Virus record (IMG/VR): IMGVR_UViG_3300047498_000060
Coordinates: 45,052 to 109,051 of that record
Strand: one strand, 5' to 3'
From: a virus
DNA length: 64,000 nucleotides
Shown: positions 5,296 through 58,258 of the stretch, in pieces
Numbering within the stretch: the first letter of the stretch is position 1
How the letters are laid out: each line of letters begins with the position of its first letter
The notes under the pieces: model-generated
What the model saw: only the letters and a program-made list of their open reading frames with translations
Told to the model about the DNA's origin: nothing
Database searches by the model: none
Translations under genes and position numbers: made by a program

Positions 5296-5322
5296 GGGTC
5301 CCTCGCGAGGCTAACAACAGCG

Positions 5323-5336
5323 GGGCTTACGCCCCT
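5323..5336 (-). terminator. Short hairpin GGGGC-GTAA-GCCCC followed by GTTAGC
   Basis: 5-bp stem with GNRA loop at end of 5335-5619 ORF. Confidence 0.45.
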
Positions 5337-5619
5337 AACTTGTTCTTTTAGATCGATGCCTACCTGGTTGATCAGTGGAAAGTGCCTCGCAGTTTTGTGT
5401 TTCGACCTCGTTGTCTATTGCTCGCAACGCGGCGTCACGTTGCACGCTTGTTAGCGGTATGGGTACTACTAGCGCGCTACTGCCTTCAGCCAGTCTCCCG
5501 AATCGCATCACTCTCTTTACGCGTAAGGGTGCATTACCTGATGCTACGGAATCTTTCTTTTGACCTCCGTCTTCTGAGAATAACAAGAACCTCCAGACAG
5601 CCGTTGGTGTCTGCCTCAT
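5335..5619 (-). CDS. Possible hypothetical protein (lower GC)
   Basis: ATG 5619 sits at the RTG position of the promoter-like motif (5624-5632); atypical codon usage. Confidence 0.35.
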   Translation of the reverse strand: MRQTPTAVWRFLLFSEDGGQKKDSVASGNAPLRVKRVMRFGRLAEGSSALVVPIPLTSVQRDAALRAIDNEVETQNCEALSTDQPGRHRSKRTS

Positions 5620-5671
5620 GATCCTTGTCCCGCGTAGCGGGTGGTTCTTGCCGAGAGCTAAGAGAACAAAG

Positions 5672-5689
5672 AGCGAGCCGAAGCTCGCC
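5672..5689 (-). terminator. Intrinsic terminator, cUUCGg hairpin plus CTTAGC tail
   Basis: Minus strand GGCGAGC-TTCG-GCTCGCT then CTTTGTTCTCTTAGC. Confidence 0.75.
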
Positions 5690-5695
5690 CCTGTT

Positions 5696-6220
5696 TCACT
5701 TCCTCTCTTGAGCGAGGAGCTCACGCACACGTTCGAGCTCCTCGCTCGTGTGCGCAACGCCTCCCTCGTTCAAGTCCAAGTACCACTGGAGTGTTTCGGC
5801 GCGCGTGTCTAGGTCGTTCACGTGCCACTTGAAGCTGGTTTGCGTGATGCGAAGGTTGTCGATGTAGTCCTTGAACCGATGCTTGCCGAAGATGACCAGC
5901 TCGTTGCGCAGGAACTTAGTCACAGCTTGGAGGCGCTGCTTGCCGTCCACGAGAACGAAGTCCTTGATGCCTCCATTGTGCCAGCGTGGGCAGTTCGTGT
6001 AGATGTCCTTGCCGCTGTTACCTCCGCGCAGGATGAACTCGACGTAGCGCACCTGCTTCTGCTCATCCCACACATGAGCACGCTGGAAGTCAGGGTCCAG
6101 GTTGAGCCCATCCTTCTCGGTGTAGCCCCTCAACGCCTCGAGGAGATAGCTCCATGAGATGTCGACCTGGTAGTTCGCGGTTCGGGTGAACTGCGGGATG
6201 TCGCGAAAGCGCGCCATCAC
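5696..6220 (-). CDS. Stand-alone DUF262 (ParB-like, GmrSD N-terminal) protein
   Basis: LDPDFQRAHVW and VLVDGKQRL motifs. Confidence 0.85.
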   Translation of the reverse strand: MMARFRDIPQFTRTANYQVDISWSYLLEALRGYTEKDGLNLDPDFQRAHVWDEQKQVRYVEFILRGGNSGKDIYTNCPRWHNGGIKDFVLVDGKQRLQAVTKFLRNELVIFGKHRFKDYIDNLRITQTSFKWHVNDLDTRAETLQWYLDLNEGGVAHTSEELERVRELLAQERK

Positions 6221-6943
6221 CTAGTGCCCGTGGTTGCAGCCCAGAATGTACTTCCTGCCATCAGGTCCATCGAGCACCTCCTCGTAGCTGCCGCAGCAGC
6301 CCTCGTCTCGCTGCTTCTTGAAGCGACGTATCTGGCTCGGACTCTTGAGCAGTGCCACGCGCTGATTGTCCATACACTCGAGCCCTAGGTTGTGGAGGTG
6401 ACAGCCTGCCCAGCGCGCGATGTTGCTCGGCAGTACGTCGTCCCAGTCCTTCTTCCGGCTCGCACAGCGTGCGGCTGCAATGGCCTCACGCGCTGCGACC
6501 CAGAAGACGTGCATGGCCCTGTCCGTGGAGCGTAGGTGCGGCAGCGCCTTCATGTTGTCGGCCGTGGACAGCTTGAGATCCACGGGCCCGAGCTCGATTC
6601 TCATCTCGGGATGAATGAAGGCGTGCTTCTCGTCTCTCCACATCCAACGCAAGGACAGCGTGGTGCGGTCCACGCATAAGAAGAACCGCTGTCCGTAGCC
6701 ACCCTCGAGAGCTGACGGCTGCTTGGCCATCGGGGTGAACTTCACGGGCCGTTTGAGCTTGGTCGTCTGCTGTCGAATCTCCGCGAAGATGATGGGCATG
6801 TCCGTCGGATCATCCAACCTGAACTGTCCCTCGCGCCGTGCCCACTTCGCCGGGCGTAGCAAGGCGCTGGTCTGGTGCATGGCCCGGCGCTTGTACTCAG
6901 CCGGGTCCACGACCATCCATACCATCGAGCTCGCGTTCGACAA
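6221..6943 (-). CDS. Hypothetical phage protein
   Basis: Long ORF, C-terminal GCCG..GCNHGH motif; start uncertain. Confidence 0.6.
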   Translation of the reverse strand: MSNASSMVWMVVDPAEYKRRAMHQTSALLRPAKWARREGQFRLDDPTDMPIIFAEIRQQTTKLKRPVKFTPMAKQPSALEGGYGQRFFLCVDRTTLSLRWMWRDEKHAFIHPEMRIELGPVDLKLSTADNMKALPHLRSTDRAMHVFWVAAREAIAAARCASRKKDWDDVLPSNIARWAGCHLHNLGLECMDNQRVALLKSPSQIRRFKKQRDEGCCGSYEEVLDGPDGRKYILGCNHGH

Positions 6944-7178
6944 GCGCCTGCGCCTCGAAGCGGCTCAACGAATGGTCACGTAGTCCCTTGCGCGTTCGGC
7001 GCATCGTCTCGAGGAACTTGTTGCAGCGATTCTGGGTGTTCGTGAGGTTCGTCAGCATCGCCTGGTACTCGGGGTGAGCACGCACCCGAGCAAGGTCTGC
7101 CGGTTCACAGGGCAGGTGGTCACGGTAATCCTCGGCTGTGCGGAACAATCGTCCGCAAGAACACTCGTTCAACTCCAT
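6897..7178 (-). CDS. Hypothetical protein (C2H-type N-terminus, coiled coil)
   Basis: AGGAG RBS; CSCGRLF...HLPC. Confidence 0.55.
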   Translation of the reverse strand: MELNECSCGRLFRTAEDYRDHLPCEPADLARVRAHPEYQAMLTNLTNTQNRCNKFLETMRRTRKGLRDHSLSRFEAQALVERELDGMDGRGPG

Positions 7179-7189
7179 GGGTCTCCTGA

Positions 7190-7645
7190 CTAGAGCGGGA
7201 CGATGGACAGGACAATCTTGAAGATCGCCGCTGCAGGCCCCGCGTACTGTTCGCACTTCTTGAGGATGTCGCAGATCTTCTCCCACCCGGACTTCTCGGT
7301 GACGAGGCCCGTGTCGAGGTAGGTCTGCACGATGGCTTGAAGCTCGGCGGGTGAGGCCTTCTTCAGGCCCACCACGTCGGCTGCCTTGAGCGGGGTCTCC
7401 TGCTCGATGGCGACGATCATCTCCTGCTCGCTGAACAACTCTTCGGCCATAGCCATTCTCCTCAGCTGGGCGGCCACCCGGCCCCGGGTGTCCTTGGTTA
7501 CCCCGCCATCATAGAGAAGGAGCTCGATGGTCGTCTTCGAGGTCCGGAAGAGTCGTGCGACACGCGTCTCACCGAGTTCAGCGCGCAGCCTTCTTAGCCG
7601 GTCTCTTTCGCTCGGTTCGAGCTTCAGGTCGCGGGACTGGGGCAT
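7190..7645 (-). CDS. Hypothetical protein, HTH-like N-terminus with internal in-frame RBS/start
   Basis: AAGGAG before ATG 7645; second GAGGAG-ATG before MAMAEELF. Confidence 0.6.
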   Translation of the reverse strand: MPQSRDLKLEPSERDRLRRLRAELGETRVARLFRTSKTTIELLLYDGGVTKDTRGRVAAQLRRMAMAEELFSEQEMIVAIEQETPLKAADVVGLKKASPAELQAIVQTYLDTGLVTEKSGWEKICDILKKCEQYAGPAAAIFKIVLSIVPL

Positions 7646-7898
7646 AGAGCTCCTTCATGGGCTTGCGTCCATCACGGATGGCGATGGCTTCCTGGCACCA
7701 GTAGTGCTGGCGGATCTCGTGGATGTGCTGAGGGTTGTGCGGGTTCCAGGGTTTCACGCCCGACAGGTCGAAGGGCGTTGGCTGCCCACAGACGGCCGCG
7801 TGTTCCGGAGGCTCTCCCTGGATGAAGTGAGCGAGCGCGAACTCCTTGTTGCCCTCCTTGTGGGCGAAGATGTACCAACCCTCTTTCTTCTCGCTCAT
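7578..7898 (-). CDS. Hypothetical protein
   Basis: AGGAG RBS, ATGA coupling. Confidence 0.6.
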   Translation of the reverse strand: MSEKKEGWYIFAHKEGNKEFALAHFIQGEPPEHAAVCGQPTPFDLSGVKPWNPHNPQHIHEIRQHYWCQEAIAIRDGRKPMKELYAPVPRPEARTERKRPAKKAAR

Positions 7899-8152
7899 GC
7901 GTCTCCTACTTTCCGTACACCGAGATGACTGCCTTCCTCGTAAACCCGCTTACCTGCGAGACCCACTGCTGGGTAGCCGTTCTTCCCGGGCTTGCCGCCC
8001 AATACATGCGGTGTGGACCATAGGCCCTTCCGTGCGTGGCGACCGCGACGGTACCAGGACCGAACGCGGCCAAGGTTACTGACCTCGTAGCCAACATGGT
8101 CACGGGTAGTGCGCCATTCCTCGGAGGCAAGCTCCGTAGCTGAGAACATCAT
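7895..8152 (-). pseudogene. NUMOD4 homing-endonuclease remnant lacking HNH domain
   Basis: EEWR....GYEVSNLGRVRS NUMOD4 motif; ORF ends before any HNH motif. Confidence 0.75.
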
Positions 8153-9087
8153 GCCGGCTTGTTTTTCAGCAGGGCGAAGTTGTGTTCGTTCGTGAGCTCT
8201 TTGCGGAACTGATGGAACCCCCAGATGTTACCTACGGGGACGTGATCGAACACCCAGCTCATGGCCGCCTTCATCGCCTGACGTTCCCACTCCCGCATCG
8301 TGAGCGCCTGGCACTGATGCTCGAATGGGCTCATGTGGCCGTTGACGAGGATCTTGCCGGCGCGGTCCAGGTCAGCAACGGGAGCGAACTTCCCCTGGTT
8401 CAAGTACGAGACAGCAGCACAACGCCCTGCGGAGACGAGACAGAGCTCGCGGTCGGTCCAGATCCTCTTGGGATCTTCCTCGAAGATGCCCTGAAGCAGC
8501 CCGTCGTCGCTGCCGACGTAGGGAAGGTGCCACTCGCCTGCGGCGAGCTTGCGGGGCTCGCTCTTCTGGTAGGCATCGAGCGCCATGTGCATCGTGCGCT
8601 CGAACTCCGGTTGTGCCATCGGGTCAACGCGGAGAGCCCATGCGTTGTCCCACTCCGTCGCCGTCGCAACCACGGTAGTGAACATCCAGGGCTCGACGAT
8701 GCGATTGGAGATCTGCTTGTGGAGGCCGATCTTCGCGAGCTCGCGTGCAGACTCAAGCATCTGGTTGCGTGCGTGCAACCACTCCTTACGCGCAGCAAAG
8801 CGCGGCGTGATGGCGTGCTCGTCACCGCCATCATCGTCGCTGAGCTCTTCGTTCGCTTGCATGCCAGATTGGTTACGTCCCCAAAACACGGGAAACATCG
8901 GATCTTCCTCAACGCGCTTGAGGAGCTTCTCTACTGGGATCGCTCTGCTGGAGGCGGCGTTCCTGCTGAACATCCTGTGCGTGTTGAACTCCGCCAACAC
9001 GATACGAGGCATAGTCAGCTCGAATGTGGTCACCCGCGCTCCGTTTGGGCCCACTGAATCAAGTATCAACTTCGCGTCATAACCCAT
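8149..9087 (-). CDS. thyX: Flavin-dependent thymidylate synthase (phage-type ThyX/Thy1)
   Basis: TTFEL..PRIVLAEFNTHRMFSRNAASSRAIP; QPE; GHMSPFEH. Confidence 0.88.
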   Translation of the reverse strand: MGYDAKLILDSVGPNGARVTTFELTMPRIVLAEFNTHRMFSRNAASSRAIPVEKLLKRVEEDPMFPVFWGRNQSGMQANEELSDDDGGDEHAITPRFAARKEWLHARNQMLESARELAKIGLHKQISNRIVEPWMFTTVVATATEWDNAWALRVDPMAQPEFERTMHMALDAYQKSEPRKLAAGEWHLPYVGSDDGLLQGIFEEDPKRIWTDRELCLVSAGRCAAVSYLNQGKFAPVADLDRAGKILVNGHMSPFEHQCQALTMREWERQAMKAAMSWVFDHVPVGNIWGFHQFRKELTNEHNFALLKNKPA

Positions 9088-9090
9088 GTC

Positions 9091-9729
9091 TTACCTGTTC
9101 GAGCCCGGCGGGGCTTTGTGTGGATTCACTGCAAGCTCTGCGAAGTGCGCTTCGAGCTCCTGTTTGAACGCCTCGATGATAGTTGGCTTGTTCTTGTGGA
9201 TCTCTGCGGCTACCTGTCGGTCCTTTTCTTCTGCCTCAAGCTCTGCTTTGAGCAGCGATTGGAAACGCGGGAAGATGACGTTGCAGAACTGGGTACACTG
9301 AACCTCGGGAACCTGGATGAAGTGGCGACCTGCCTCCTCGAGGTGCGTGAACTCCATCCAGTCGTCGAAGCCTGCCTCCTCGTCGAGGTCGAAGGACAAC
9401 CCACTCTCCGGATCTTCTCCCTTGAGAAGCTTCTCCTCGAACATCTTCTCTTCGGGGTCCTCGAGCTTGCTCGCTGCCGCACGAATAGAGGCGATCGACG
9501 CCACGGAGTCGTAGACCCGCCTGTCCGAGCGGCCGAACATCAGCTTCTCGAACAGGTAGTCCGGGCGCATGCCGAGGAGGAACGCACGGAACTCCTTCCC
9601 AGGCTGCGACCATACGTAGACGTAGTTTCCGCGGTCGCTCGCCGTCGAGAAGAAGCCGGTCTCGAGGTCCAGTACGATGAGAGCCCAATCTTCGCCGTTT
9701 ACGTTGTCGACCTTGTACTTCTTCAGCAT
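9091..9729 (-). CDS. Hypothetical phage protein
   Basis: GAGG RBS; SDRGNYVYVW motif; strong codon bias. Confidence 0.65.
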   Translation of the reverse strand: MLKKYKVDNVNGEDWALIVLDLETGFFSTASDRGNYVYVWSQPGKEFRAFLLGMRPDYLFEKLMFGRSDRRVYDSVASIASIRAAASKLEDPEEKMFEEKLLKGEDPESGLSFDLDEEAGFDDWMEFTHLEEAGRHFIQVPEVQCTQFCNVIFPRFQSLLKAELEAEEKDRQVAAEIHKNKPTIIEAFKQELEAHFAELAVNPHKAPPGSNR

Positions 9730-9731
9730 GT

Positions 9732-9995
9732 TCACCTCTTGCACTTGATGCCCGAGTCGTCTGCTCCTGCATCCACCTTGTACTCGGCCATCGCGTCAAC
9801 CACGGCGCAGTACGCCGCGCGGACTTCCTGACCCTCGATAGACTCTGCGCCAGTGTGCTGGTACGCCAGTCCGTCGTCCGTGCGCGCGTTCATGAGGTCC
9901 TTCACTGCCTTGGGCGAGAGCACGGCTCCGCCACCGCAGCCGGCGAGGAAGCTGAGGATGGCGGTGTACGTGAGGGTCCACTTGAATTTCTTCAT
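9732..9995 (-). CDS. Predicted lipoprotein
   Basis: MKKFKW + hydrophobic stretch + LAGC lipobox; AAGGAG RBS. Confidence 0.7.
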   Translation of the reverse strand: MKKFKWTLTYTAILSFLAGCGGGAVLSPKAVKDLMNARTDDGLAYQHTGAESIEGQEVRAAYCAVVDAMAEYKVDAGADDSGIKCKR

Positions 9996-10024
9996 GGGAG
10001 CTCCTTCGACATTGTAAGAGAACG

Positions 10025-10252
10025 TCAGCATGTTCGGTCCGGCACTGCTGCGGCCATCTCGTCGCTGGTGCACTGCTCACGCCAGCAGAGCTGACACCAG
10101 GCGATGCCCACGATACTGCTGACGTTGTGGGGCAGGGAGAGTGGGACGGTGACGCGGACCCTGGCGTTACCTGCGAGCAGCCTCACGCCGCACTTGCAGC
10201 AGACGTGGTCGACCTGCAGCGTGACGAGCTTCGGCTCGGGCGCTTCTCTCAT
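10025..10252 (-). CDS. Small CxxC protein
   Basis: CCKCG and WCQLC pairs; ATGA coupling. Confidence 0.5.
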   Translation of the reverse strand: MREAPEPKLVTLQVDHVCCKCGVRLLAGNARVRVTVPLSLPHNVSSIVGIAWCQLCWREQCTSDEMAAAVPDRTC

Positions 10253-10680
10253 CCGTTCCCCCCTCGATGCCACCGCGCGTTGCGCAGTCGGTTGGTGTAC
10301 TCGGCGACCCAGGCCATAGCCTCCTGTACCGTCGGGAAGCGACCGATGGTGTCGTGCACACCGGCGAGTATCTGGATGGCGTAGTCGTGGACGTACTGCG
10401 TGGGCGGGAAGTTCAGTGGCGCGTACGTCTGCAGCGCGTCGACGAGCCGCTGGTAGGTTGCCTGACTTGGGCTCCCGTTCTTCTGTGACTCTGAGAGCAC
10501 CAGCCAGGCCGCGTTTGCTACGCGCTCGGTATCCCGCCAGCTACGCATGAACTCGATGAACTTCTCGGCGAGCTGCTCCTGCGTGAGCGTCTTGGTGAAG
10601 TACTCCTTTACCTGCGCCTCGTCTGCGGCCTCGTATCCACGAATCTCATCGATGGGCATCCGTCGTTGTTTTGCTGCCAT
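10249..10680 (-). CDS. Hypothetical protein
   Basis: GGAGG RBS before ATG 10680; ORF open to 10833. Confidence 0.55.
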   Translation of the reverse strand: MAAKQRRMPIDEIRGYEAADEAQVKEYFTKTLTQEQLAEKFIEFMRSWRDTERVANAAWLVLSESQKNGSPSQATYQRLVDALQTYAPLNFPPTQYVHDYAIQILAGVHDTIGRFPTVQEAMAWVAEYTNRLRNARWHRGGNG

Positions 10681-10759
10681 GATCCTCCATGGAGCGCGTG
10701 AAGCGTCCGAGATCCTTGTGCCGCAAGCCAGGCAGGAGTTGTAGGCGTAGCTCTCCTTT

Positions 10760-11428: not shown

Positions 11429-11431
11429 GGG

Positions 11432-12343
11432 TCAAGGGGCCGTGACAACGACATCGAGTGGTTGCCCTAGAATCGGGGCGTAGGGAAAGCTGACGACGCT
11501 CCGGTCCGTGCGCTTCAAGACGATCTGCGCGCTCCCCGGTGCTCCGGCCTGGAGTGTGATCGTTCGTTCACGCTGGTTCAGGATGAAGCCCACGACTCCT
11601 TGGTCGGTGGTGCTGTACCGGACGTCTCCGTATGCCGTACCTAGCTCTTGGCCGTCCGAGGCGAGAACCTGGATGCCGATAGTCTGACTCGTCCCCGCAA
11701 CCAGTGAGTAGGGTGGAGGCGGATCGAGTACCACCTCCACCACACGCGGGAAGATGAGGTCCGGCATGTTCACGTTCGGCTGATCAGGCACTGTGATCGT
11801 CCGGGTGATGTCTTCCTCTCCCTGGATGGTCACATCGTACTGCGCGTTCCTGAAGAGGCTGACCTGCGCATACCCTGTCCGGTCGGAGGAGATGACGACG
11901 CGTTCCTTCAGGACTGCTGAGCCGTCGACCAGGAGCGGATCGAATTTCGCCACGAAGTGGATCTGAATACCCTTCTGTGGAGCGCCCGTCATGTCACGGA
12001 AGTAACCTGAGGCTACACAGAGACGGATGTCGTTGGCATCCGGCGGCTGCATGATGGTGCCGACGACGTTGAACTCGTTCGCTACCGGAGGTATGGGCGC
12101 CGAAACGACCTGAAGGTACTGCGGCAAGGCGAACGATGTCCCGAACCGGTAAGCGCGCAGCTGGTACGTGGTGCTAGGAGCCGTTACAGGCAGAAGAAAA
12201 CCGACGTGACCGTTCACATCGGTCGCCCCCATCGTGAAGGCCTGCGTCCCATCCTGGGACAGAATCTTGACGACCGCCCCAGCGAGTGGGTTCGCGTTCG
12301 GTGTCGAATCAAGCAGAAAAATATCGACCGATTCAAACGTCAC
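11432..12343 (-). CDS. Probable virion structural protein (transthyretin/carboxypeptidase-regulatory-like beta domains)
   Basis: Beta-rich; GATDVNGHVGF and SSDRTGYAQVSL repeats. Confidence 0.55.
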   Translation of the reverse strand: MTFESVDIFLLDSTPNANPLAGAVVKILSQDGTQAFTMGATDVNGHVGFLLPVTAPSTTYQLRAYRFGTSFALPQYLQVVSAPIPPVANEFNVVGTIMQPPDANDIRLCVASGYFRDMTGAPQKGIQIHFVAKFDPLLVDGSAVLKERVVISSDRTGYAQVSLFRNAQYDVTIQGEEDITRTITVPDQPNVNMPDLIFPRVVEVVLDPPPPYSLVAGTSQTIGIQVLASDGQELGTAYGDVRYSTTDQGVVGFILNQRERTITLQAGAPGSAQIVLKRTDRSVVSFPYAPILGQPLDVVVTAP

Positions 12344-12554
12344 GGGGCACCTGTTCTGACAGTCGCTGTATTAGCCCCATCGTCATGTTCCGACAAGAAC
12401 CATCGGGCATCGCAGGAAAGATGTCCAGGTAGACTTGAAGGGCTCGAAGAACGGCGAGAGCCTCCGCCTTCCGTCCTGGCTGGCTCTCCAGGTCTTTCGC
12501 GATAGCGAAGCAGTGCCGGAACACGTCCTTGGTCTGCTGGGACGACATGAGCAC
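12333..12554 (-). CDS. Hypothetical protein
   Basis: GAGGTG RBS. Confidence 0.5.
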   Translation of the reverse strand: MLMSSQQTKDVFRHCFAIAKDLESQPGRKAEALAVLRALQVYLDIFPAMPDGSCRNMTMGLIQRLSEQVPRDV

Positions 12555-12583
12555 CTCACTTCGGCCGGTTCTTACGCGTGCGC

Positions 12584-13588
12584 CTAGAAACTCCTGCGTA
12601 CGGCAAAGTCTAGTTGCCGTGCCTGCACGGTGAACAAGTCGTCCTTCCCCGTGGAGGGACTGAGCAGATCCAGCGTCAGAATCGAAGGGTCGTTCGGAAT
12701 GCAGACATCGCGGGCGAGCGCGGTCCCCCCGATGGCCACCGTGACCTTGACGCCACGAGTCAGAAGGATCTGGGCGCGCCCTGTACGGTCGGTGAGGAGC
12801 TTGGTGCTGCCCCCGAGAATGGTCGTGCCTCCCACCTGAAGCCCCTGCGTATCTGCGGTGCTGATGAGAACCTCCTGGTTGACTGAGGGATTCCCGCTGG
12901 AATCCGCGAGCTGCACGAAGCAGGCAACCAGTCGATTTGCGTTGAAGAGTGGCGCGTTTGGCCCCTGGAGAGGGAGGCTGAAGTCGCTGCCGAGGCGCTT
13001 GGTCGAGTTCCAGAAGCGGGTCTCATAGAAGAACTCGGGGCTCCCGAAGGCGTCGACGAAGCCATACTGGGCCTGCTGTGGGACCAGCAGAATGCGGGCG
13101 TCTTGGCCGTAGGCGATGGACTCAAAGCCAGTGACTGCTAGCCCAAGGAAGGGCGCAGCCTGCCCGCCGGTGCACTGCAGGGAGGTGATGGCTCCCGCGC
13201 GCTTGGTCTGCACCACGAGAGTGGGACCTGACGAGTAGCTAATGAGAAAGTTCGAGGCTGCCGTAGCGACCGCTGCGACAACTGAGGCCATGGAGACGAA
13301 CCCCGAGCCCGGGATGACTACCGAGACGGGGTACTGGTCCATGGCCAGGAACTGGAGGTCGAGCCCACCCACATTGACCAGCTGGGCACCGTTGTCGGGA
13401 GCTCCCGCGAAGTTGAGCGGGAGAGATGCTGGCGCCCAGGTGTCTCCGTGTAGGGCCTCGTAAGGCCCCTCGGGAGTCTGCCTGGAACGCCAGACTTCAA
13501 GGCGGTCGTACCCCTGCCAGCTTGCCGGCTCGAACACGAAGTTGAGCGGGAGCTGCTGAGTGATGACAGGGGACGACCGGCGCGTCAT
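12584..13588 (-). CDS. Probable virion structural protein
   Basis: C-terminal domain paralogous to 11432-12343; middle domain resembles sheath insertion repeat. Confidence 0.55.
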   Translation of the reverse strand: MTRRSSPVITQQLPLNFVFEPASWQGYDRLEVWRSRQTPEGPYEALHGDTWAPASLPLNFAGAPDNGAQLVNVGGLDLQFLAMDQYPVSVVIPGSGFVSMASVVAAVATAASNFLISYSSGPTLVVQTKRAGAITSLQCTGGQAAPFLGLAVTGFESIAYGQDARILLVPQQAQYGFVDAFGSPEFFYETRFWNSTKRLGSDFSLPLQGPNAPLFNANRLVACFVQLADSSGNPSVNQEVLISTADTQGLQVGGTTILGGSTKLLTDRTGRAQILLTRGVKVTVAIGGTALARDVCIPNDPSILTLDLLSPSTGKDDLFTVQARQLDFAVRRSF

Positions 13589-14231: not shown

Positions 14232-14235
14232 GGAA

Positions 14236-14640
14236 CTAGTCTACCTCAGTTTTCGCCTTGCGCGCGTTCGGACATCCGCGCTCGTGGGTGGCGACGTTGT
14301 TCACGACAAGTGATGCGCACTGCGAGCACCTGACGTGGATAGCCTCATCATCATCCGACCAGGAGCTTTGGTCGAAGCCTTGTTTTCTTAGCTGCTCGAG
14401 GCGGTTCATTTCTTCTGCCAATCCTTGGGGAGGAAACCGCCTCGCGAGATCCAATCGTCGAGCGACTCGAAGGCGTCGGCCAGGTGACGCCTTCTTCTTG
14501 TCTGGGTCCTTCGCTGTGCGTGCCGCCGTAGCAGCGCAGACGCAGCCCTTACACCAAGGGAATAGCCCATCGGGTCTTCGCTTGTCCTTGGGGAATGGGC
14601 CGGTGCTGCCGCACTTTGTACACCGCTTCTCAAGCATCAA
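14236..14640 (-). pseudogene. Homing-endonuclease N-terminal Zn-finger remnant fused to small CSQC..HERGCPN protein
   Basis: KRCTKCG...WCKGC without catalytic domain, then a distinct C-terminal Cys/His motif. Confidence 0.45.
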
Positions 14641-15796: not shown

Positions 15797-15814
15797 CGCT
15801 CTCCTAAAAAGAAA

Positions 15815-15845
15815 GCGGCGCACCCGGGTTAGCCGGATGCGCCGC
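15815..15845 (-). terminator. Intrinsic terminator
   Basis: 13-bp stem (one wobble) followed by TTTCTTTTT on minus strand. Confidence 0.75.
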
Positions 15846-24087: not shown

Positions 24088-24142
24088 GTGCTCAGCGTAG
24101 CAGAAGACTACGAGCTCCAGAACCGCGTGTGCTAAGAGGAAA

Positions 24143-24169
24143 CCACGGCGGCCTTGGCAGACCCCGTGG
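24143..24169 (-). terminator. Hairpin followed by TTTCCTCTTAGC
   Basis: CCACGG/CCGTGG outer stem, downstream of the baseplate operon. Confidence 0.55.
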
Positions 24170-24195
24170 CGTGATCACTACCTGTGCAAGAGGCG

Positions 24196-29517: not shown

Positions 29518-29540
29518 CGTCGACTCCCTAGCTAAGAGAA

Positions 29541-29554
29541 AAGGCCGAAGCCTT
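29541..29554 (-). terminator. cUUCGg hairpin followed by TTCTCTTAGC
   Basis: Minus strand AAGGC-TTCG-GCCTT directly after HNH stop. Confidence 0.6.
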
Positions 29555-29562
29555 GTTCTCCA

Positions 29563-36730: not shown

Positions 36731-36735
36731 CACGA

Positions 36736-36780
36736 GCAGAAGGAGCTACCCACAAGGGGTGGTCTCCTTCTGCTTAGCCC
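36736..36780 (+). terminator. Hairpin plus CTTAGCCC
   Basis: GCAGAAGGAG/CTCCTTCTGC inverted repeat. Confidence 0.7.
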
Positions 36781-37563: not shown

Positions 37564-37574
37564 CGAACGGAAGG

Positions 37575-37613
37575 AGCGCCACCCCGTGAGGGCTGGCGCT
37601 TTCTTCTTAGCCC
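37575..37613 (+). terminator. Hairpin plus TTCTTCTTAGCCC
   Basis: AGCGCCA/TGGCGCT stem. Confidence 0.75.
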
Positions 37614-37638: not shown

Positions 37639-37737
37639 GGGGACAAGAAGTATGGAGCCCTGCTTCTCCCTCCAGCGGCAGTGAGCTCGGCGGCGTATAC
37701 CCCCAGGTGCATGGGGGTATGCGCCGCTTCTCTTAGC
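37639..37737 (+). ncRNA. Candidate small RNA or micropeptide unit (promoter motif to 16-bp hairpin)
   Basis: Motif at 37639, 10-codon ORF 37652-37684, stem 37690-37727, then TTCTCTTAGC. Confidence 0.4.
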
Positions 37738-49855: not shown

Positions 49856-49875
49856 GCGTTCCTGAATTGTCTAGG

Positions 49876-49904
49876 GTTGTACTGCCAGCGTGCTCACGCG
49901 TCAA
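49876..49904 (-). promoter_or_regulatory. Sigma70-type promoter TTGACG-17-TACAAC
   Basis: Exact 17-nt spacer; upstream of 49855 gene. Confidence 0.65.
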
Positions 49905-49910
49905 GGAATA

Positions 49911-49938
49911 GCTAAGCAAGAGGGGCAGGTGCCCCTCT
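49911..49938 (-). terminator. Hairpin plus TGCTTAGC
   Basis: AGAGGGGC/GCCCCTCT 8-bp stem right after stop at 49942. Confidence 0.7.
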
Positions 49939-49941
49939 GCC

Positions 49942-50388
49942 CTACTTCGGGAGAACCTCCGCGAGTAGGTGTGTCACGACCTCGAGGTCGGTGAATGCCG
50001 GTCTCTCGTTGTGGAAGGGTCGGTTCTCGAGCTTCGCCAGCACGACCCCGCCCTCCAGGCGCAGTGGGGGACTGGTCACCTTCGAGAGCGAACCCTTCAG
50101 CAAGTAGAAAGGCCCGTACTCCACGAGCTGCTCACTGAACTTGATGTACGACCGGCCAGTAAAGACGTGCCGCAGGTCACCCCCCTGCAGCACCAGCATC
50201 GCCGTCAGGTGCGAGAACACCAACTCGTCGAACGTGAACTTGCCCCAAAAGATGTTGCCCTTCGGGTGCGGTGTGCAGTTCGGTGTGCTCCAGGCACCGC
50301 CTCTTGCCCAGGCTAGCTCCTCCCCGTTCGTGCAGATCTGGATGCGCCGCTCGGTTGCTACTCGGTGGAAACCTTCCCTGGTGCCCAC
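49942..50388 (-). CDS. Hypothetical protein (start uncertain)
   Basis: Biased codons; GTG 50388 chosen. Confidence 0.5.
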   Translation of the reverse strand: MGTREGFHRVATERRIQICTNGEELAWARGGAWSTPNCTPHPKGNIFWGKFTFDELVFSHLTAMLVLQGGDLRHVFTGRSYIKFSEQLVEYGPFYLLKGSLSKVTSPPLRLEGGVVLAKLENRPFHNERPAFTDLEVVTHLLAEVLPK

Positions 50389-51313: not shown

Positions 51314-51322
51314 GCCGGAAGA

Positions 51323-52498: not shown

Positions 52499-52510
52499 GC
52501 TGGAAGACTA

Positions 52511-53317
52511 CTACTCCTGGTCGGGGTAGATGAACTGCAAGGCGCTGAGCTCTTTGCTCACCAGAGCCTCGAGCTCCTCGAGTCCGTCCGCGTTGTTCAG
52601 CACCGAGGCGAACTTCCTCTGGTCGATACTGTTCTGCTCCTGCTCGCTGGCGTGCAGGGCGGCGGCTCCAGTAAGGCCGGCGCCTGGGCGCTCAATCTTC
52701 CAGACGTGACCACCTGCTGCGCGGATGGCGTCCACCTCGTTGATGAAACGGACATCGCTGATGACGACGCCTTGGGGTACGCGCTCGTTGATGTTGGTAC
52801 CTCCAGACAGAGCACCGTTCTTCGCGCTGTATCTGGTCACGTTCCTCAACAGGTCTGCTGCCACACGCAGCGCGTAGTCGACCCACACGTTGTCGTAGCA
52901 GCCACGTCCCCATTCTGTACCTAGCTGCTGAAGAGCATGGCGCGGGGTGAGGAACTCCGCCGGCAGTTTCACGTAGTGCATGTTGTGCTTGGCCATCCGC
53001 TTAGTGCAGAGGGCGCAGTCTCGATCGGCCAGTACGCGACCGATAGTCATCTCCTCGAACTTCTCGCCGAAGAGACGGTGACAGCACTTGGTGCACGTCC
53101 ACGCATTCTGCATCGGACGTCGCAGGTACCGCTCGTCCGGCTTGTTCCGCGCCTCACTCGGACCCCACAGCTGGGTGTCCGAGAAGTCAAAGACCTCCCT
53201 CGCTATGCGCTTCAAGGGGTCAGCGAGCGCCACGGCGACGAACCCGTGATTCTTCACCAGGAAGTCCGCGACCGTTGACTTTCCTGCACCTGCCTGACCA
53301 CAGAGTCCTATGAGCAT
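52511..53317 (-). CDS. Deoxynucleoside monophosphate kinase with Cys-rich insertion
   Basis: IGLCGQAGAGKST, ALADPLKR, TPRHALQQLGTEWGR, VISDVRF.NE. Confidence 0.9.
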   Translation of the reverse strand: MLIGLCGQAGAGKSTVADFLVKNHGFVAVALADPLKRIAREVFDFSDTQLWGPSEARNKPDERYLRRPMQNAWTCTKCCHRLFGEKFEEMTIGRVLADRDCALCTKRMAKHNMHYVKLPAEFLTPRHALQQLGTEWGRGCYDNVWVDYALRVAADLLRNVTRYSAKNGALSGGTNINERVPQGVVISDVRFINEVDAIRAAGGHVWKIERPGAGLTGAAALHASEQEQNSIDQRKFASVLNNADGLEELEALVSKELSALQFIYPDQE

Positions 53318-53946
53318 GCTGGATCTCCCTTCGCACCTAAACGCTCTCCGATCTGATGGCCTTCGGCTCGATGCTGCGGACAGACTTCAGCCAGATACGC
53401 GCCCTTCATCTGGCAGCCACACGCGTAGCCGAAATGATCGTTGGTGAAGATCTGCGCAACGTGTGCCTGGTGTAGGAAGTGGATCGGCATGTGTACGGCC
53501 TTGATGGACGCGCGCCTAAACCAATCGAGGGAGTCCTTGATGCGGTAGTCGTTGCGATAGATGACGCGCTGCACGCCCCCGAGGTTGATGAGGAGCTTGG
53601 CACAGCCGACGCAGGGGAGGTGCGAACAGAAGACAACCTTCGGCTTGTCGCGCTCGGCGCGGCAATTCACGACAGCGTTGGCCTCAGCATGGATGCAGCC
53701 GCAGTTGCCGACAGCTTCGTCTCCATGGCGGTCGCAGCCGTTCTTGTCGCCGGCGGCAGAGCCGTTGTATCCGACCCCGAAGACGTACCGAAAGTCCAGG
53801 CTGGTGATGACCGCGCCGACTTTCATCCGCTCGCAGGTGGAGCGCTCGCTCATCATCACAGCGAGGCGCAAGTAGATGTCCTGGAAGGTCGGTCTCTCCA
53901 GCATGGTGCCGTCCTCTCTGGGTCGGAACTCCGTGTGAACTCCCAT
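53308..53946 (-). CDS. dCMP deaminase
   Basis: RSTC.RMKVGAVI, GYNG, HAEANA, PCVGCAKLLI. Confidence 0.9.
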   Translation of the reverse strand: MGVHTEFRPREDGTMLERPTFQDIYLRLAVMMSERSTCERMKVGAVITSLDFRYVFGVGYNGSAAGDKNGCDRHGDEAVGNCGCIHAEANAVVNCRAERDKPKVVFCSHLPCVGCAKLLINLGGVQRVIYRNDYRIKDSLDWFRRASIKAVHMPIHFLHQAHVAQIFTNDHFGYACGCQMKGAYLAEVCPQHRAEGHQIGERLGAKGDPACS

Positions 53947-54065
53947 CAGCGCCACCCCGGTCCCACGAACTTGGCGATGGCGCAGATGCCCCCGATGATG
54001 AACCCGACCACGAACCCGATGAGCGCGGGCCAGATCCAGCTCGGAACAATGAAGTGAATTTCCAT
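53946..54065 (-). CDS. 39-aa single-TM peptide (not in ORF track)
   Basis: MEFHFIVPSWIWPALIGFVVGFIIGGICAIAKFVGPGWR; AGGAG RBS; TGATG coupling both sides. Confidence 0.55.
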   Translation of the reverse strand: MEIHFIVPSWIWPALIGFVVGFIIGGICAIAKFVGPGWR

Positions 54066-54343
54066 CAAACTCCTCTCGCTGCGAGCACCTCGCTGATGAT
54101 CTCGCGGGTGTGGTCGCAGACCCGGCGCTGCACCACAGGGGCGCGGCGTGCCGACGTACCAAAAACAAAGGCCCGGTCGAACACCTTTTCGTAGGTGCCG
54201 CCAGGCCAGGTGACCTTGACAGAGAACTCTCCGCGCGGTCGCGCTGCGATCGTGACTGTCGCGTAGGTGGAGCGCTCAAGGACCTGGCGCCGCTCTTCCA
54301 GCTTGGCGCGAAGCCTGGCTAGAAGAACGGCGCCGCGGTCCAT
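54065..54343 (-). CDS. Hypothetical protein
   Basis: Coupled ORF. Confidence 0.55.
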   Translation of the reverse strand: MDRGAVLLARLRAKLEERRQVLERSTYATVTIAARPRGEFSVKVTWPGGTYEKVFDRAFVFGTSARRAPVVQRRVCDHTREIISEVLAARGV

Positions 54344-54345
54344 GA

Positions 54346-55089
54346 TCAGCCGCCGTGGCCTACCACGGGTGCGCCGTTCGCGGGCGGCCCCAGGGTGAAG
54401 CCGGGGACCGCGTTGGCGGCAGACGCCATGGCCTGGGCGAGGATGGCCGGGTCGGTCGTGGAGACCGGCGCGGAGGACAGCGGGTGTCCCGTCTGACCCG
54501 CGAGCTGATCACGCAGAGAAACCGGCAGTGGCTTGGGAGCCACGGCCGTAGGTGCCTCAAGGGACTGCGTGGCCTTGGACACGGCCGCCTGGTAGAGGCG
54601 TTCTTCGACCGGTGTGCGCGCCGCGTTGTTCGCGAGAGCCACGACGATCTCGGTGGCGTTGCGTTCGCGGACCACGCTCTCTCCGATGAGGGAGGGTGAA
54701 ACCGCACTGACCGGAAGGCGCAGCGGCTCGTACAGCAGGCTGCTCGGCACCTCGCCAGGGCCCGTGTCCTTCGCGTGGGTCTCGCGGACCGTGGTGGTAG
54801 CCACAGGCTTGCGGCCAACGGCGCGTTTCGCGACGGGCGCAGCCTTCGCCGCCTTCTTTGCGACCTTCTTCGCAGCAGCTTTCTTCGCCACCTTCTTCGC
54901 GGTGCGTGGGGCTGCTGACTTGCCACCATCCTCGCCGAAGCGGGCGTCGATGGCCTCAGCGGCGATCTTCCTGTCGTGCGGACCCCAATCGCTCTTGCCC
55001 ACGGCGCGCCGCGCGCCCGTCGCCGTTTCGTACTTCCCTGCCTTGAGATTCTCGCTGAACACTGACAGCGTCATCCGCTCGTAACCCAT
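54346..55089 (-). CDS. Protein with histone-H1-like AKK repeats
   Basis: AKKVAKKAAAKKVAKKAAKAAPVAK; AGGAG RBS. Confidence 0.65.
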   Translation of the reverse strand: MGYERMTLSVFSENLKAGKYETATGARRAVGKSDWGPHDRKIAAEAIDARFGEDGGKSAAPRTAKKVAKKAAAKKVAKKAAKAAPVAKRAVGRKPVATTTVRETHAKDTGPGEVPSSLLYEPLRLPVSAVSPSLIGESVVRERNATEIVVALANNAARTPVEERLYQAAVSKATQSLEAPTAVAPKPLPVSLRDQLAGQTGHPLSSAPVSTTDPAILAQAMASAANAVPGFTLGPPANGAPVVGHGG

Positions 55090-55158
55090 CGTGGTCGTCT
55101 CCTGGGCGTCTCGGCCCGTAGTGGTAGAAAAGAACAAGTACTCCCGTTGTAGAAGAAG

Positions 55159-55296
55159 TCAACGGTAGAACGTAAGAACACACAGCAGAGCTACCCAGAC
55201 CGCAACGAAGGCGGCGTACTTCCAGCCGGCTCTGTGGATGGGGCGATGAGGCTCGCTCATCTTTCGTAACGCTCGATCACTGAACTCTAGGGCCAT
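55159..55296 (-). CDS. Small membrane peptide
   Basis: GAGGA RBS; C-terminal TM; motif copy at 55312-55320. Confidence 0.45.
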   Translation of the reverse strand: MALEFSDRALRKMSEPHRPIHRAGWKYAAFVAVWVALLCVLTFYR

Positions 55297-55304
55297 GGCT
55301 TCCT

Positions 55305-55357
55305 CACCGCTCTTGTCCCCTGACTCTCTAGATACTTTATCGGGGATAAGGACAGCG
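55305..55357. promoter_or_regulatory. Back-to-back copies of promoter-like motif (divergent)
   Basis: GGGGACAAG on minus (55320-55312) and GGGGATAAG on plus (55342-55350). Confidence 0.55.
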
Positions 55358-55404
55358 GCCGCAACGCTTGCCCCTCGTGTAGTGCCCGCTGCTATCATGC
55401 GGCC

Positions 55405-55773
55405 ATGCGAAACCTCATCTGCATATTAGTCTGCACGCTCGTAGCGTGTCAGATGCCGGTCCCTCCAACCCCGTGCGTTCCGGACGCGATGCCTACGCCG
55501 GTGGCTAAGGCGACACCTTGTGTGGTTCCTGCCCCTTCCGGGCCAGTGACGCCGCCCTCACCGCCAGAGCCGCACGACGCCTGCTGGAACGCAGCGCAGA
55601 AGCTCATCTCGCTGGGCTGCAAAGACAGCCGTGGTCGCGTCCTCGGTGGCCCAGACCTCAGCGGCCTTACCTGGTCGCAGGTCTGCCGTCAGGACCTCTC
55701 GAACGGCGTCAATCTCAACGCGAGCTGCATCTCTGCAGCCAACACGTGCGCGGCAGCGGAGGCATGTAAATGA
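55405..55773 (+). CDS. Cys-rich lipoprotein
   Basis: LVAC lipobox, Pro-rich linker, Cys-rich domain; TATCAT 6 nt before ATG. Confidence 0.7.
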   Translation: MRNLICILVCTLVACQMPVPPTPCVPDAMPTPVAKATPCVVPAPSGPVTPPSPPEPHDACWNAAQKLISLGCKDSRGRVLGGPDLSGLTWSQVCRQDLSNGVNLNASCISAANTCAAAEACK

Positions 55774-56606
55774 ACCAGATCACTTGGCAGGGTCGCAACT
55801 TCAAGAGCCACGAGCTCTTCGACAGCACGATGCCCGACGCACTTCGGGCCCATATCGCACCGCCGCGTCCCTTCGAGGGCGTGATGATGGCGTTCAAGGC
55901 GTCGGCGACAGCGCAGAACGGGAGTGACTACGACATCCCGAACCAGCCGCCGGCGTACGACCAGGGCGACGAAGGCTCCTGTGTCCTCAACTCCACGATC
56001 GGTGCGATGAGCATCGTCCTTGGTGTTGAGAAGCTCGCCGCCGTGATGCTCTCCCGCAACTTCCTGTACTGGCTGTGCCGCGAGGTCATGGGTACCACCA
56101 AGCAGGACAGCGGGACCTACTCGTCTCTCGCCGTCGACCGCGTCGGGAAGATCGGCGTCTGCGAGGAGAGCACCTGGGCGTACGGCGACGACACGATGTA
56201 CGTCGCGCCCTCGCTTCAGGCCTACAGCGAAGCCTCGGACAACAAGGCGACCGCGTGGTTCCAGGTCGACTCTCCCAGCGCCAAGGTCGCGCGCCTCACG
56301 CAGATCGAGGCAGCGATCCGCTCCAACCACCCGGTCATCTTCGGCACCCCCGTCGACAACGCGATCCAGACCTACCAGTCGGGGCAGATCCTCAGCACCC
56401 CTGACGTGAACGCCCTCATCGGCGGCCACGAGATGGTGGTCACGGGCGTCCGCTACATCGCCGGCCAGCGCGTCTGGATCTGGCGCAACTCTTGGGGTAC
56501 GTCCTACGGGGACAACGGCTACCTCATGGTGGACGACAACTGGATGAACTGGGCACAGCTCCAGGACATCTGGTTGTTGACGCGACTCTCCCCGTTGCTA
56601 TTCTAG
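55770..56606 (+). CDS. Papain-family (C1A) cysteine peptidase
   Basis: DQGDEGSC (Gln/Cys), GGHEM (His), RNSWG..YGDNGY (Asn). Confidence 0.92.
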   Translation: MNQITWQGRNFKSHELFDSTMPDALRAHIAPPRPFEGVMMAFKASATAQNGSDYDIPNQPPAYDQGDEGSCVLNSTIGAMSIVLGVEKLAAVMLSRNFLYWLCREVMGTTKQDSGTYSSLAVDRVGKIGVCEESTWAYGDDTMYVAPSLQAYSEASDNKATAWFQVDSPSAKVARLTQIEAAIRSNHPVIFGTPVDNAIQTYQSGQILSTPDVNALIGGHEMVVTGVRYIAGQRVWIWRNSWGTSYGDNGYLMVDDNWMNWAQLQDIWLLTRLSPLLF

Positions 56607-57266
56607 GTGAATCAACGTACTCCTCCGACCATCCACGTAGGTGACACCTACGGGCTGTGGACCGTAGTAACGAGCCCCTGGCGCAACGCCAGGGGCTTTC
56701 TTGTTGTGGGAGTAGTGTGCAGCTGCTCCCCAGAACACGAGGTTGTACGTGACGCATACAGCGTGTATCGCGGCGACTCCGGATCTTGCGGCTGCAGACG
56801 CATGCAGGCCTCACGGGAAGCGCACTTACGACACGGGCAATCCAGTGGAAAACGCACGCGTATCTATCGCATCTGGCGTGGCATGCGGCAGCGCTGCCTG
56901 AACAAGAACAACCCTATCTATAAGGGCTACGGCGAACGAGGTATCACCATCACTCCTCGCTGGAATAAGTTCGAGAATTTCTGGAAAGACATGGGAGACC
57001 CACCAAGCAAGCGGCACTCACTAGGGCGCATCAACAATGATAGTCCATACTCCAAGGCCAACTGCGAATGGCAAACCGCAGACGTCCAGTGCAACAACAC
57101 ACGCAGTACTCGCCATGTCACCTTTGAGGGGCGTACGGCCTCACTTACGCAGTGGGCGCGTGAGTACGGGCTGCCTCCGCATACATTGCGCGCAAGACTA
57201 GAAGCTAACTGGGACGTACGGCGCGCACTACAGACACCGATACGTTCACGCAACGTCACTACCTAA
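56607..57266 (+). CDS. HNH homing endonuclease
   Basis: YRIWRGMRQRC, YGERGI, LGRINNDSPYSKANCEW..Q.NN, TFEGRTASLTQWA. Confidence 0.88.
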   Translation: MNQRTPPTIHVGDTYGLWTVVTSPWRNARGFLVVGVVCSCSPEHEVVRDAYSVYRGDSGSCGCRRMQASREAHLRHGQSSGKRTRIYRIWRGMRQRCLNKNNPIYKGYGERGITITPRWNKFENFWKDMGDPPSKRHSLGRINNDSPYSKANCEWQTADVQCNNTRSTRHVTFEGRTASLTQWAREYGLPPHTLRARLEANWDVRRALQTPIRSRNVTT

Positions 57267-57273
57267 AGGAACC

Positions 57274-57471
57274 ATGGCACGACAACTCGTTCTCATCTGC
57301 GACGGCAAAGACTGCGGCACTGTACTGCTTGAGCCTCATGCGGGCTTCATCATCAAAGGCTCCATCGAGGAGGCTGCCATTGAGAGCCCAAAGCCTCTGG
57401 TTGTGCAGGCCGAGGAAACGGTGCTCTGCAGAGAGTGCTTTCTTACAACGCTCGGTGCAGCTACAAAGTAG
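57274..57471 (+). CDS. Small CxxC protein
   Basis: AAAGGA RBS; CDGKDC and CREC. Confidence 0.55.
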   Translation: MARQLVLICDGKDCGTVLLEPHAGFIIKGSIEEAAIESPKPLVVQAEETVLCRECFLTTLGAATK

Positions 57472-57473
57472 GG

Positions 57474-57896
57474 ATGCCGAAGGCGCGAAGAATCAACCTG
57501 CCCGTGGGCGAGGACCTCGGTGTCCTTCTGGACGTACTAATCTGGGGAGTGCGCGAAGAGTGCCGCAAGGCGGGCAAGTCGAAGCCCACCCAGGTGGACA
57601 TCATCAATCGCGCGCTCCTCGCCTACTGCCTCGAGCGAAAAGACTCCTTGCTGAAGGTGCTCGCCAATGAAGCCGACCAAGCCACCGTCGCAGACGCTCT
57701 TCAACGAGCAGGACATTCTTCCGGACTACAGCGCTTCGCTCAGCAACTTCAAGGCCGAGCCGGTCACGCCCATCCCAAGCGTCGCGGAGATAGCCGCACA
57801 CCAGGCGGGGGAGATGGAGCACCCGCTCTTTCGATCCACCCCCGCGTTGCCGAAGCGCTCGGAGACCTCGATCCTACAGGGCCTGCTGGGTGGTGA
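57474..57896 (+). CDS. Possible RHH-like DNA-binding protein (tail overlaps next gene)
   Basis: INLPV beta strand then two helices (TQVDIINRAL). Confidence 0.4.
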   Translation: MPKARRINLPVGEDLGVLLDVLIWGVREECRKAGKSKPTQVDIINRALLAYCLERKDSLLKVLANEADQATVADALQRAGHSSGLQRFAQQLQGRAGHAHPKRRGDSRTPGGGDGAPALSIHPRVAEALGDLDPTGPAGW

Positions 57897-58206
57897 CGTT
57901 CGGGTCCTGCTCGACGACCGAGCTCGCAATCCGAGGCGTTACGGACCCGAGACCTCCGCCGTCCTCGACAGACTCGAAGGCAACCCAACCGCTATCGATC
58001 TCACCCCCGAGGACCAGTACCTCCTGAACATGGCAGTGCTCGAGTTCGCCTCGGCGCCGAAGCCAGAACCCCCAGAGGTAATGAAGCCTAAGCCGAGGCC
58101 GAAGAAAGAGATCGTCGCACAAAACGGAGAGGGGCCCGCACGCACGCTACCCTGGAGCGAAGATGCGCCAGAGCAGAAACCCGAGAGCTACTGGTGGATG
58201 AAGTAG
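57667..58206 (+). CDS. Hypothetical protein
   Basis: AAGGTG RBS; ends before palindrome. Confidence 0.6.
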   Translation: MKPTKPPSQTLFNEQDILPDYSASLSNFKAEPVTPIPSVAEIAAHQAGEMEHPLFRSTPALPKRSETSILQGLLGGDVRVLLDDRARNPRRYGPETSAVLDRLEGNPTAIDLTPEDQYLLNMAVLEFASAPKPEPPEVMKPKPRPKKEIVAQNGEGPARTLPWSEDAPEQKPESYWWMK

Positions 58207-58216
58207 CCACAAAAGA

Positions 58217-58258
58217 GAAGAGGGCAGCCCGTACGGGCTGCCCTCTTCATTCTTAGCC
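58217..58258. terminator. Perfect 32-bp palindrome, bidirectional terminator, CTTAGC on plus side
   Basis: GAAGAGGGCAGCCC-GTAC-GGGCTGCCCTCTTC between convergent genes. Confidence 0.85.

Follow-up and report, generated by a model that had tools for sequence, protein, structure and literature searches.

Putative terminators with a conserved TTAGC tail in a phage lineage that encodes a cell-like multisubunit RNA polymerase

Terminator-like hairpins of the uncultivated virus IMGVR_UViG_3300047498_000060 (an IMG/VR record, here called G000) are mostly followed by a short pyrimidine tract that is closed by the nearly invariant word TTAGC. The element was analysed in a 64,000-nucleotide stretch of this record (bases 45052–109051 of 183,295 bp, hereafter the window), in the whole genome and in related viruses. 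We consider it most probable, at roughly 0.55, that these structures are hairpin-dependent intrinsic terminators with a lineage-specific tail that is read by the phage polymerase. In the window the core TTAG[C/G] is present in 11 terminator-like intergenic hairpins with T-rich tails, or 12 if the weaker GTTAGC at 5311–5316 is included, and only two or three window terminators have no core, namely 56672–56698 (+), the minus-strand reading of 58217–58248 and possibly 14469–14494 (+).

The G000 genome has a GC content of 62%, is estimated to be 98% complete and has genes for a DNA helicase and a tail sheath. On the minus strand at genome positions 139155–145712 (locus L006:256-6813), which is outside the window, a single open reading frame (ORF) of 2185 amino acids encodes a fused beta-beta' multisubunit RNA polymerase (RNAP) with matches to the domains Rpb2_6 (1e-58), Rpb2_3, Rpb1_1, Rpb1_2 and Rpb1_5. 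This enzyme is far nearer to cellular polymerases than the enzymes of phiKZ or the crAss-like phages are, and is provisionally assigned to the mReC type, a group of metagenome-derived Caudovirales whose multisubunit RNAP branches deeply (Weinheimer and Aylward 2020, PMC7481178). Like G000, the mReC phages are uncultivated tailed phages of about 100–200 kb whose beta and beta' homologues are far closer to cellular RNAP than are those of phiKZ and the crAss-like phages. Neither of the words promoter and terminator occurs in that paper, and our literature searches found no report of the tail motif or of transcription signals in the mReC lineage. Among deposited phage genomes no close cultured relative was found by megablast or by tblastn of one structural ORF; the RNAP matches cultured phages (Vibrio D69/D181/D148 and Salmonella Arash) only at about 30% identity, and 48 related viral contigs carry it at 29–95% identity.

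The non-randomness of the tail word lies in its position. An overall excess of CTTAGC is ruled out, as its count is at chance (18 copies in the window against 18.29 expected; 39 in the genome), and about half of the copies lie 0–8 nt past a strong hairpin whose 5' end is at a stop codon. An improved hairpin finder gave 556 strong hairpins (folding free energy, dG, of −13 or lower) in the genome, and CTTAGC is present in the tails of 16 of these against 0.89 expected (P = 3e-15), which is the genome-wide count that the earlier note on this DNA had proposed as a check. On the upstream side (the "head") only one of the 556 hairpins has the word, and CGATTC, the word reversed, is found once in the tails (1.27 expected). 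A motif-blind k-mer scan of the 16 nt after all stem-loops on both strands ranked TTAGC and CTTAG first (TTAGC 13 against 0.74 expected, CTTAGC 9 against 0.33), and composition-preserving shuffling of each T-rich tail gave 1.3 on average and never more than 6, where 17 are observed. The near-variants TTTAGC, CTTAGG, TTTAGG and GTTAGC hold the same position at other terminators. A repeat family or mobile element is rejected because the stems have no common sequence; in the window Rfam matched only two tRNA-like genes.

The ten sites cited in the earlier note are all present at their coordinates and strands, 0–8 nt past a GC-rich hairpin that itself begins at a stop codon or shortly past one. 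Its observation that CTTAGC follows hairpins thus survives as a positional association and gives way as an exact word, the conserved core being TTAG[C/G] at the end of a pyrimidine tract. The hairpin that it had set aside as an exception, 15815–15845, does carry the core, in the tail TTTCTTTTTAGG (TTTTTAGG), and its remark that most sites lack a clean U-tract is better put otherwise: the tails are U-tracts interrupted by C, and a pyrimidine or T tract always abuts the word. The putative terminators of the window are as follows, with orthologs from the closest relative, G001, where given.

5311–5335, minus strand: weak terminator; hairpin 5322–5335 (GGGGCGTAAGCCCC), tail GCTGTT, variant word GTTAGC 5316–5311
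5657–5695, minus strand: terminator after the stop codon of gene 5696–6217; hairpin 5665–5695, tail TTTGTTCT, CTTAGC 5662–5657, dG −16.3
15803–15845, minus strand: terminator, the former "exception"; hairpin 15815–15845, tail TTTCTTT, relaxed core TTAGG 15807–15803, dG −27.3
24131–24170, minus strand: terminator; hairpin 24142–24170, tail TTCCT, CTTAGC 24136–24131, dG −20.1
29531–29561, minus strand: terminator; hairpin 29535–29561 runs into CTTAGC 29536–29531, next start codon 18 nt downstream
36734–36778, plus strand: terminator; hairpin 36734–36775, its 3' arm running into CTTAGC 36773–36778, dG −28.5; CTAGC in the G001 ortholog
37573–37611, plus strand: terminator; hairpin 37573–37602, tail CTT, CTTAGC 37606–37611, dG −20.1
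37689–37737, plus strand: terminator; hairpin 37689–37728, tail TCT, CTTAGC 37732–37737, dG −35.7; TTTAGC in the ortholog
38975–39007, plus strand: terminator at a convergent junction; hairpin 38975–39002, CTTAGC 39002–39007, in which TTA complements the stop codon of gene 39003–39221 (−), dG −22.9
39924–39959, plus strand: terminator overlooked in the first reading; hairpin 39924–39952, TTTAGC 39954–39959, next ATG 8 nt downstream; in G001 another hairpin is in place and CTATTCTTTAGCTA is retained
49911–49942, minus strand: terminator; hairpin 49914–49942 runs into CTTAGC 49916–49911, dG −19.6
56672–56712, plus strand: terminator without the motif, kept in the denominator; hairpin 56672–56698, tail TCTTGTTGTGGG, dG −24.1
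58217–58257, plus strand: terminator at a convergent junction; hairpin 58217–58248, tail ATT, CTTAGC 58252–58257, dG −30.0; read on the minus strand, the hairpin has the tail TCTTTTGTGG, without the motif

Alignment on TTAG of 64 sites from six genomes gives the consensus CCC-TTYTTY-TTAGC-Y. The fifth position of the core is C in 56 of the 64 sites (G at the fourth, in all 64, follows from the construction of the alignment), and T makes up 64–78% at four of the six positions −6 to −1, within a tract that is interrupted by C and varies in length. Nothing is conserved farther downstream, as the information in this profile reaches background 3 nt past the core, and the stem columns −14 to −10 hold only 0.08–0.21 bits, no stem sequence being common to the 64 sites. 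The A of the core stands 3–13 nt past the final G/C pair of the stem, and the tract, however long, always abuts the word. The hairpins have energies of −11.6 to −35.7 kcal/mol and start 0–40 nt past stop codons. Most are preceded by a purine-rich arm (GAAGAAGG), which is able to base-pair with the pyrimidine tract in the way known from bidirectional terminators, and at one hairpin (genome 24725–24752) the word is found on both sides.

The orientation of the word relative to genes was counted in eight genomes with home-made gene calls, in which individual starts and some small genes are unreliable, a weakness that orientation counts tolerate. The extended word YTYYTTAGC occurs 88 times between genes and 52 times within them, and its mirror word 11 and 36 times, respectively, where intergenic DNA is about 10% of the sequence. 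An automatic finder places a strong hairpin at 59 of the 88 intergenic copies, and inspection by eye reveals one at most of the remaining 29, so that at least 80% are attached to a hairpin and no more than a handful are bare. In 75 of the 88 cases (85%) the gene upstream has the same orientation as the word, and in 52 (59%) the gene downstream does; 26 copies lie at convergent junctions and three at divergent ones, and ten cases in which both neighbours point the other way may reflect missed genes. A promoter would give the reverse of the 26 to 3 ratio, so the case against a promoter reading is well supported, and these counts support the conclusion that the tail is a 3'-end signal. This upholds the statement in the earlier note that the word is not a promoter for the next gene; of its broader proposal of a termination, 3'-processing or protein-binding signal, the 3'-end signal stands, and the three forms of it cannot be separated by sequence analysis.

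Two other ideas about the word concern its relation to genes. An in-frame backup stop codon is ruled out, since the TAG falls in frames 0, 1 and 2 relative to the upstream stop 24, 31 and 29 times. For sense-strand selection against the motif within genes there is no evidence either way: the G007 asymmetry (two sense and 30 antisense genic copies) is explained by codon usage, codon shuffling giving 1.7 and 19.6, the high-GC genomes are equally depleted of the motif on both gene strands, and there is no avoidance within genes beyond what codon usage predicts.

Conservation was followed in ten whole relative records, several of which are only 52–58% complete, as the RNAP-flanking loci of the 48 relatives hold few terminators to score, like the RNAP region of G000 itself. 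The tail word is top-ranked after hairpins in seven relatives whose RNAPs are 49–95% identical to that of G000 and whose GC contents run from 46% to 64%. In G001 to G005 (RNAP identity 95% in G001, 63% in G002 and G003, 60% in G004 and 56% in G005) the motif-blind scan ranks TTAGC, TTTAG, CTTAG or TAGCTA first, and the word is also top-ranked in G008 (53% identity, 54% GC) and G007 (49% identity, 46% GC), the latter with TTTAGC 24 times against 4.4 expected. In the relatives of lower GC content the T-tract is cleaner and the word is lengthened to TTTAGCTAC(TCAA). Beyond these, G009 (39% identity, 60% GC) and G010 (35%), both half-complete contigs, have the tail at a few terminators only, G011 (29% identity, 40% GC) has plain T-runs after its hairpins and no tail word, and in Salmonella phage Arash (about 32% identity) the tails in the first 50 kb are T-rich and ordinary. 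Because G009 has only sporadic copies at 60% GC, these comparisons indicate that the tail tracks phage and RNAP phylogeny and not base composition.

Among 11 orthologous terminators of G000 and G001, the tract (91% identical) and TTAGC (93%) are better conserved than the hairpin region (80%) or the 8 nt that follow the word (69%), and in two ortholog pairs the hairpin has been wholly replaced with CTATTCTTTAGCTA or TTTTTCTTAGC retained. Since the tail is conserved both across the clade and in orthologous terminators, the comparison shows it to be under purifying selection, as would be expected of a signal.

Throughout the clade, G010 included, the 70 nt before genes are enriched in a separate promoter-like word, GGRAYAAGA, which matches a motif noted separately when the window was first read. 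Its forms are GGGACAAGA in G000, GGGATAAGA or CATAAGA in G002 to G008 and GGTATAAG in G010, and it usually lies 4–6 nt before GTGGAGG and a start codon. It may be the promoter of the phage polymerase. Examples of this word are found at the following places.

Window 5617–5640, minus strand: promoter-like word
Window 37640–37660, plus strand: promoter-like word
Genome 29.9–36.3 kb: promoter-like words
Relatives G002 to G010: promoter-like words

A hairpin with a U-rich tract is a general termination device of multisubunit polymerases. If the elements described here are hairpin-dependent intrinsic terminators, their order from the gene end would be the purine-rich arm, the GC-rich hairpin, the C-interrupted U-tract (TTYTTY) and the fixed TTAGC, rarely TTAGG. 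The RNA would be released at the last U residues before the A, and the A-G-C just beyond, sensed by the polymerase in the non-template strand or the downstream DNA, would favour pausing or release. The UUA-GC boundary might in this way make up for a tract weakened by its C residues: the weakest hybrid pairs at the 3' end, together with a downstream or non-template contact, would slow the next additions, and the hairpin would gain time to act. At several sites the next start codon lies 8–20 nt past the motif, so many of these terminators are probably partial, serving as leaky intercistronic attenuators. The earlier note, made without knowledge of the RNAP, left the reader of the tail unnamed; the presence of a phage multisubunit RNAP shifts the likeliest reader, and it is probably this fused beta-beta' enzyme, rather than that of the host, that reads the tail.

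The nearest precedent, by analogy, is the terminator of phage phiKZ, and the present element would work in a like manner without being a member of that class. Termination sites of phiKZ were mapped by ONT-cappable-seq, and most of its predicted intrinsic terminators consist of a hairpin and a TTAT region, BCCYCCCCHWWDGGGRRGGBYTTATKYYGT (Putzeys et al. 2024, Microlife 5:uqae002, PMC10914365). That phage likewise has its own multisubunit RNAPs and a motif common to most of its terminators, in which a GC hairpin is followed by a short T-run ending in TTA with a fixed continuation (YTTATKYYGT), and some of its terminators are bidirectional at convergent genes (PMC10914365). The differences are that the phiKZ stem is conserved (CCYCCCC...GGGRRGG) whereas here the stems all differ and the tail alone is fixed, that only YTTA is shared between YTTATKYYGT and YTTAGCY, that the phiKZ RNAPs are of split subunits and ours is one fused chain, and that the phiKZ sites were mapped experimentally while ours are read from sequence.

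Bacterial intrinsic terminators share with these elements a GC hairpin right after the stop codon, often an A or purine tract before the hairpin, a sense orientation and presence at convergent gene ends. Their hairpin is followed at once by a U-rich tract of 7–9 nt, whereas the U-rich tract here varies in length, is interrupted by C and is closed by the nearly invariant TTAGC. We know of no conserved word after the tract in characterised bacterial terminators, and the literature searched contained none. Virus polymerases do answer to short fixed words and not to structure alone at T7 class II terminators (ATCTGTT) and at the early U5NU signal of vaccinia. These work without a hairpin, unlike the present elements; the T7 RNAP moreover is a single-subunit enzyme, unlike the multisubunit RNAP here, and the vaccinia signal is read in the RNA by means of a separate factor. 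T7 class II terminators are mentioned in 10.64898/2026.02.12.705533. A hairpin-independent terminator of the T7 class II or U5NU type does not fit the strong hairpins at 59 of the 88 intergenic copies and the hairpins seen at most of the others, a handful of copies being bare.

Several points weigh against hairpin-dependent terminators read by the phage polymerase. Termination is read from the anatomy of the sites. The 3–13 nt between stem and A is looser than a fixed release site would suggest, and a few intergenic copies have a long T-run and no convincing hairpin. Together with the tandem copies noted below, the bare ones hint that the word may act alone, for example as a binding or cleavage site. 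On the sense strand of genes the word is not avoided beyond the prediction from codon usage, which gives no sign that it terminates by itself. On the host side, the 8-mer test described below has low power, the mirror word being as common as the word in G005 and G002, and the Myxococcales link comes from the binning of a single contig.

A bolder form of the proposal, which we regard as possible but hold only tentatively, is that the T-run with AGC(TAC) is a true sequence-specific termination code of this deeply branching phage RNAP, and that with GGRAYAAGA it makes up a private transcription punctuation. Recognition of the word, in the nascent RNA or in the non-template DNA, would then fall to the polymerase core or to a phage factor. 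At long T-runs no hairpin would be needed, and the bare copies and the tandem ones would thereby be accounted for. We note that in G007 (IMGVR_UViG_3300013121_000023), at about 175800–175825 on the minus strand, three tail words stand in tandem after one hairpin, TTAGC-T-TTAGCTAC-TTC-TTAGCTAC.

The main competing explanation is RNA processing, in which a host or phage endoribonuclease would cut single-stranded UUAGC 3' of the hairpin, so that the upstream mRNA keeps a protective 3' hairpin and the downstream mRNA gains a 5' end near its ribosome-binding site. The start codons a short distance past the motif, the variable spacing between stem and word, the existence of tandem and hairpin-less copies and the fact that nucleases typically recognise a specific sequence all speak for it. 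We nevertheless judge it unlikely, since the word is always fused to a pyrimidine or U tract beside a GC hairpin, just as an intrinsic terminator is built, the 26 copies at convergent gene ends stand where transcription must stop anyway, no match to an RNase E/G domain was found in G000, and the motif is, to our knowledge, unlike the known preference of RNase E.

Somewhat less likely again is that the tail is the intrinsic-terminator style of the host bacteria, copied so that the host RNAP stops. A hairpin with a U-rich tract is indeed the bacterial signal, and because sigma-70-like promoters occur in these phages the host polymerase probably transcribes some of their genes. One such sequence, TTGACG-17 nt-TACAAC, lies directly after the 49911 terminator (window 49905–49870, minus strand), with TTGACG kept in G001, and suggests that the host polymerase transcribes part of this genome too. 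Yet the tail is kept from 46% to 64% GC, in phages that probably have different hosts, and follows RNAP phylogeny in place of GC content, G009 being the telling case; we know of no bacterium with such a terminator tail, and none appeared in the literature searched. The sole and weak hint of a host for the subclade is a phage contig, CALFEQ010000137.1 (91,785 bp; L098), whose full-length RNAP is 57% identical to that of G000 and which was binned in the metagenome-assembled genome (MAG) of an uncultured member of the Myxococcales. This 8.6-Mb MAG has 11 copies of TTCTTAGC, of which the phage contig accounts for two, and 65 of its mirror word. Among 26 genomes of that order (the MAG and 25 others) the word is at or below its mirror and never clearly above control, with 1–3 copies in the 7–10 Mb of the high-GC members, whereas the phages have about 40 per Mb. 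This far lower density disfavours a host-wide convention and, with conservation over an 18-point range of GC, makes a phage-encoded reader the likeliest, the simplest candidate being the phage polymerase.

We think it improbable that a phage DNA- or RNA-binding factor at TTAGC(TAC) stops or releases the polymerase, in the manner of the roadblocks mTERF or Reb1 or of the vaccinia U5NU signal, which is read by a termination factor. The length of the word in the low-GC relatives (up to 9 nt, TTTAGCTAC), the tandem copies and the variable hairpin spacing would suit such a factor; none was recognised in G000, where there was no match to NusG or to sigma70 region 2 and only a sub-threshold match resembling sigma region 4, and the obligatory hairpin and U-tract already account for termination.

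A promoter or start-site element for the downstream gene is very improbable: a gene often begins shortly after the word, and very short promoters can suffice for phage multisubunit RNAPs, but the convergent excess and the stronger co-orientation of the upstream gene point the other way, information ends 3 nt past the word, there is no partner element at a fixed spacing (the distance to an ACAAG motif varies between 24 and 35 nt, which excludes a bipartite promoter), and GGRAYAAGA already stands upstream of genes across the clade.

If the elements are indeed intrinsic terminators of the phage enzyme, they bear on a gap, since no account is known of transcription initiation or termination by the cell-like polymerase of mReC-type phages. 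The candidate terminator hairpin-TTYTTY-TTAGC is now defined, and at least eight genomes conserve it; with the candidate promoter motif, it provides templates for a recombinant mReC-type enzyme, and transcription units of these metagenomic genomes can be better annotated with its help. It would be a second, independent case, beside phiKZ, of a phage with its own multisubunit polymerase and terminators with a fixed tail word, and by analogy suggests that multisubunit phage polymerases generally evolve their own termination determinants. Should the tail be specific to the phage enzyme, it would offer an orthogonal terminator part and a way into the downstream contacts that control release in multisubunit polymerases.

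Some minor features remain. The tails of both clear terminators without TTAGC, at window 56699–56712 (+) and 58216–58203 (−), end in TTGTGG (TCTTGTTGTGGG and TCTTTTGTGGC) and may represent a second tail class. A search for T7-type RNAP domains matched nothing in G000, but the same search matched no control genome either. In the cultured distant relative with this RNAP, Salmonella phage Arash (OQ632216.1), gp10 (11892–12596) is annotated as an RpoS-like sigma factor; in G000 sigma region 2 was undetected. Finally, two adjacent tRNA-like genes lie at window 40364–40547 on the minus strand, to one of which ARAGORN gives a four-base "anticodon" (gaga). Rfam scores both as tRNA at 51–52 bits and matched nothing else in the window, and the CTTAGC copy at 40537–40542, which falls within one of them, is unrelated to the terminators.

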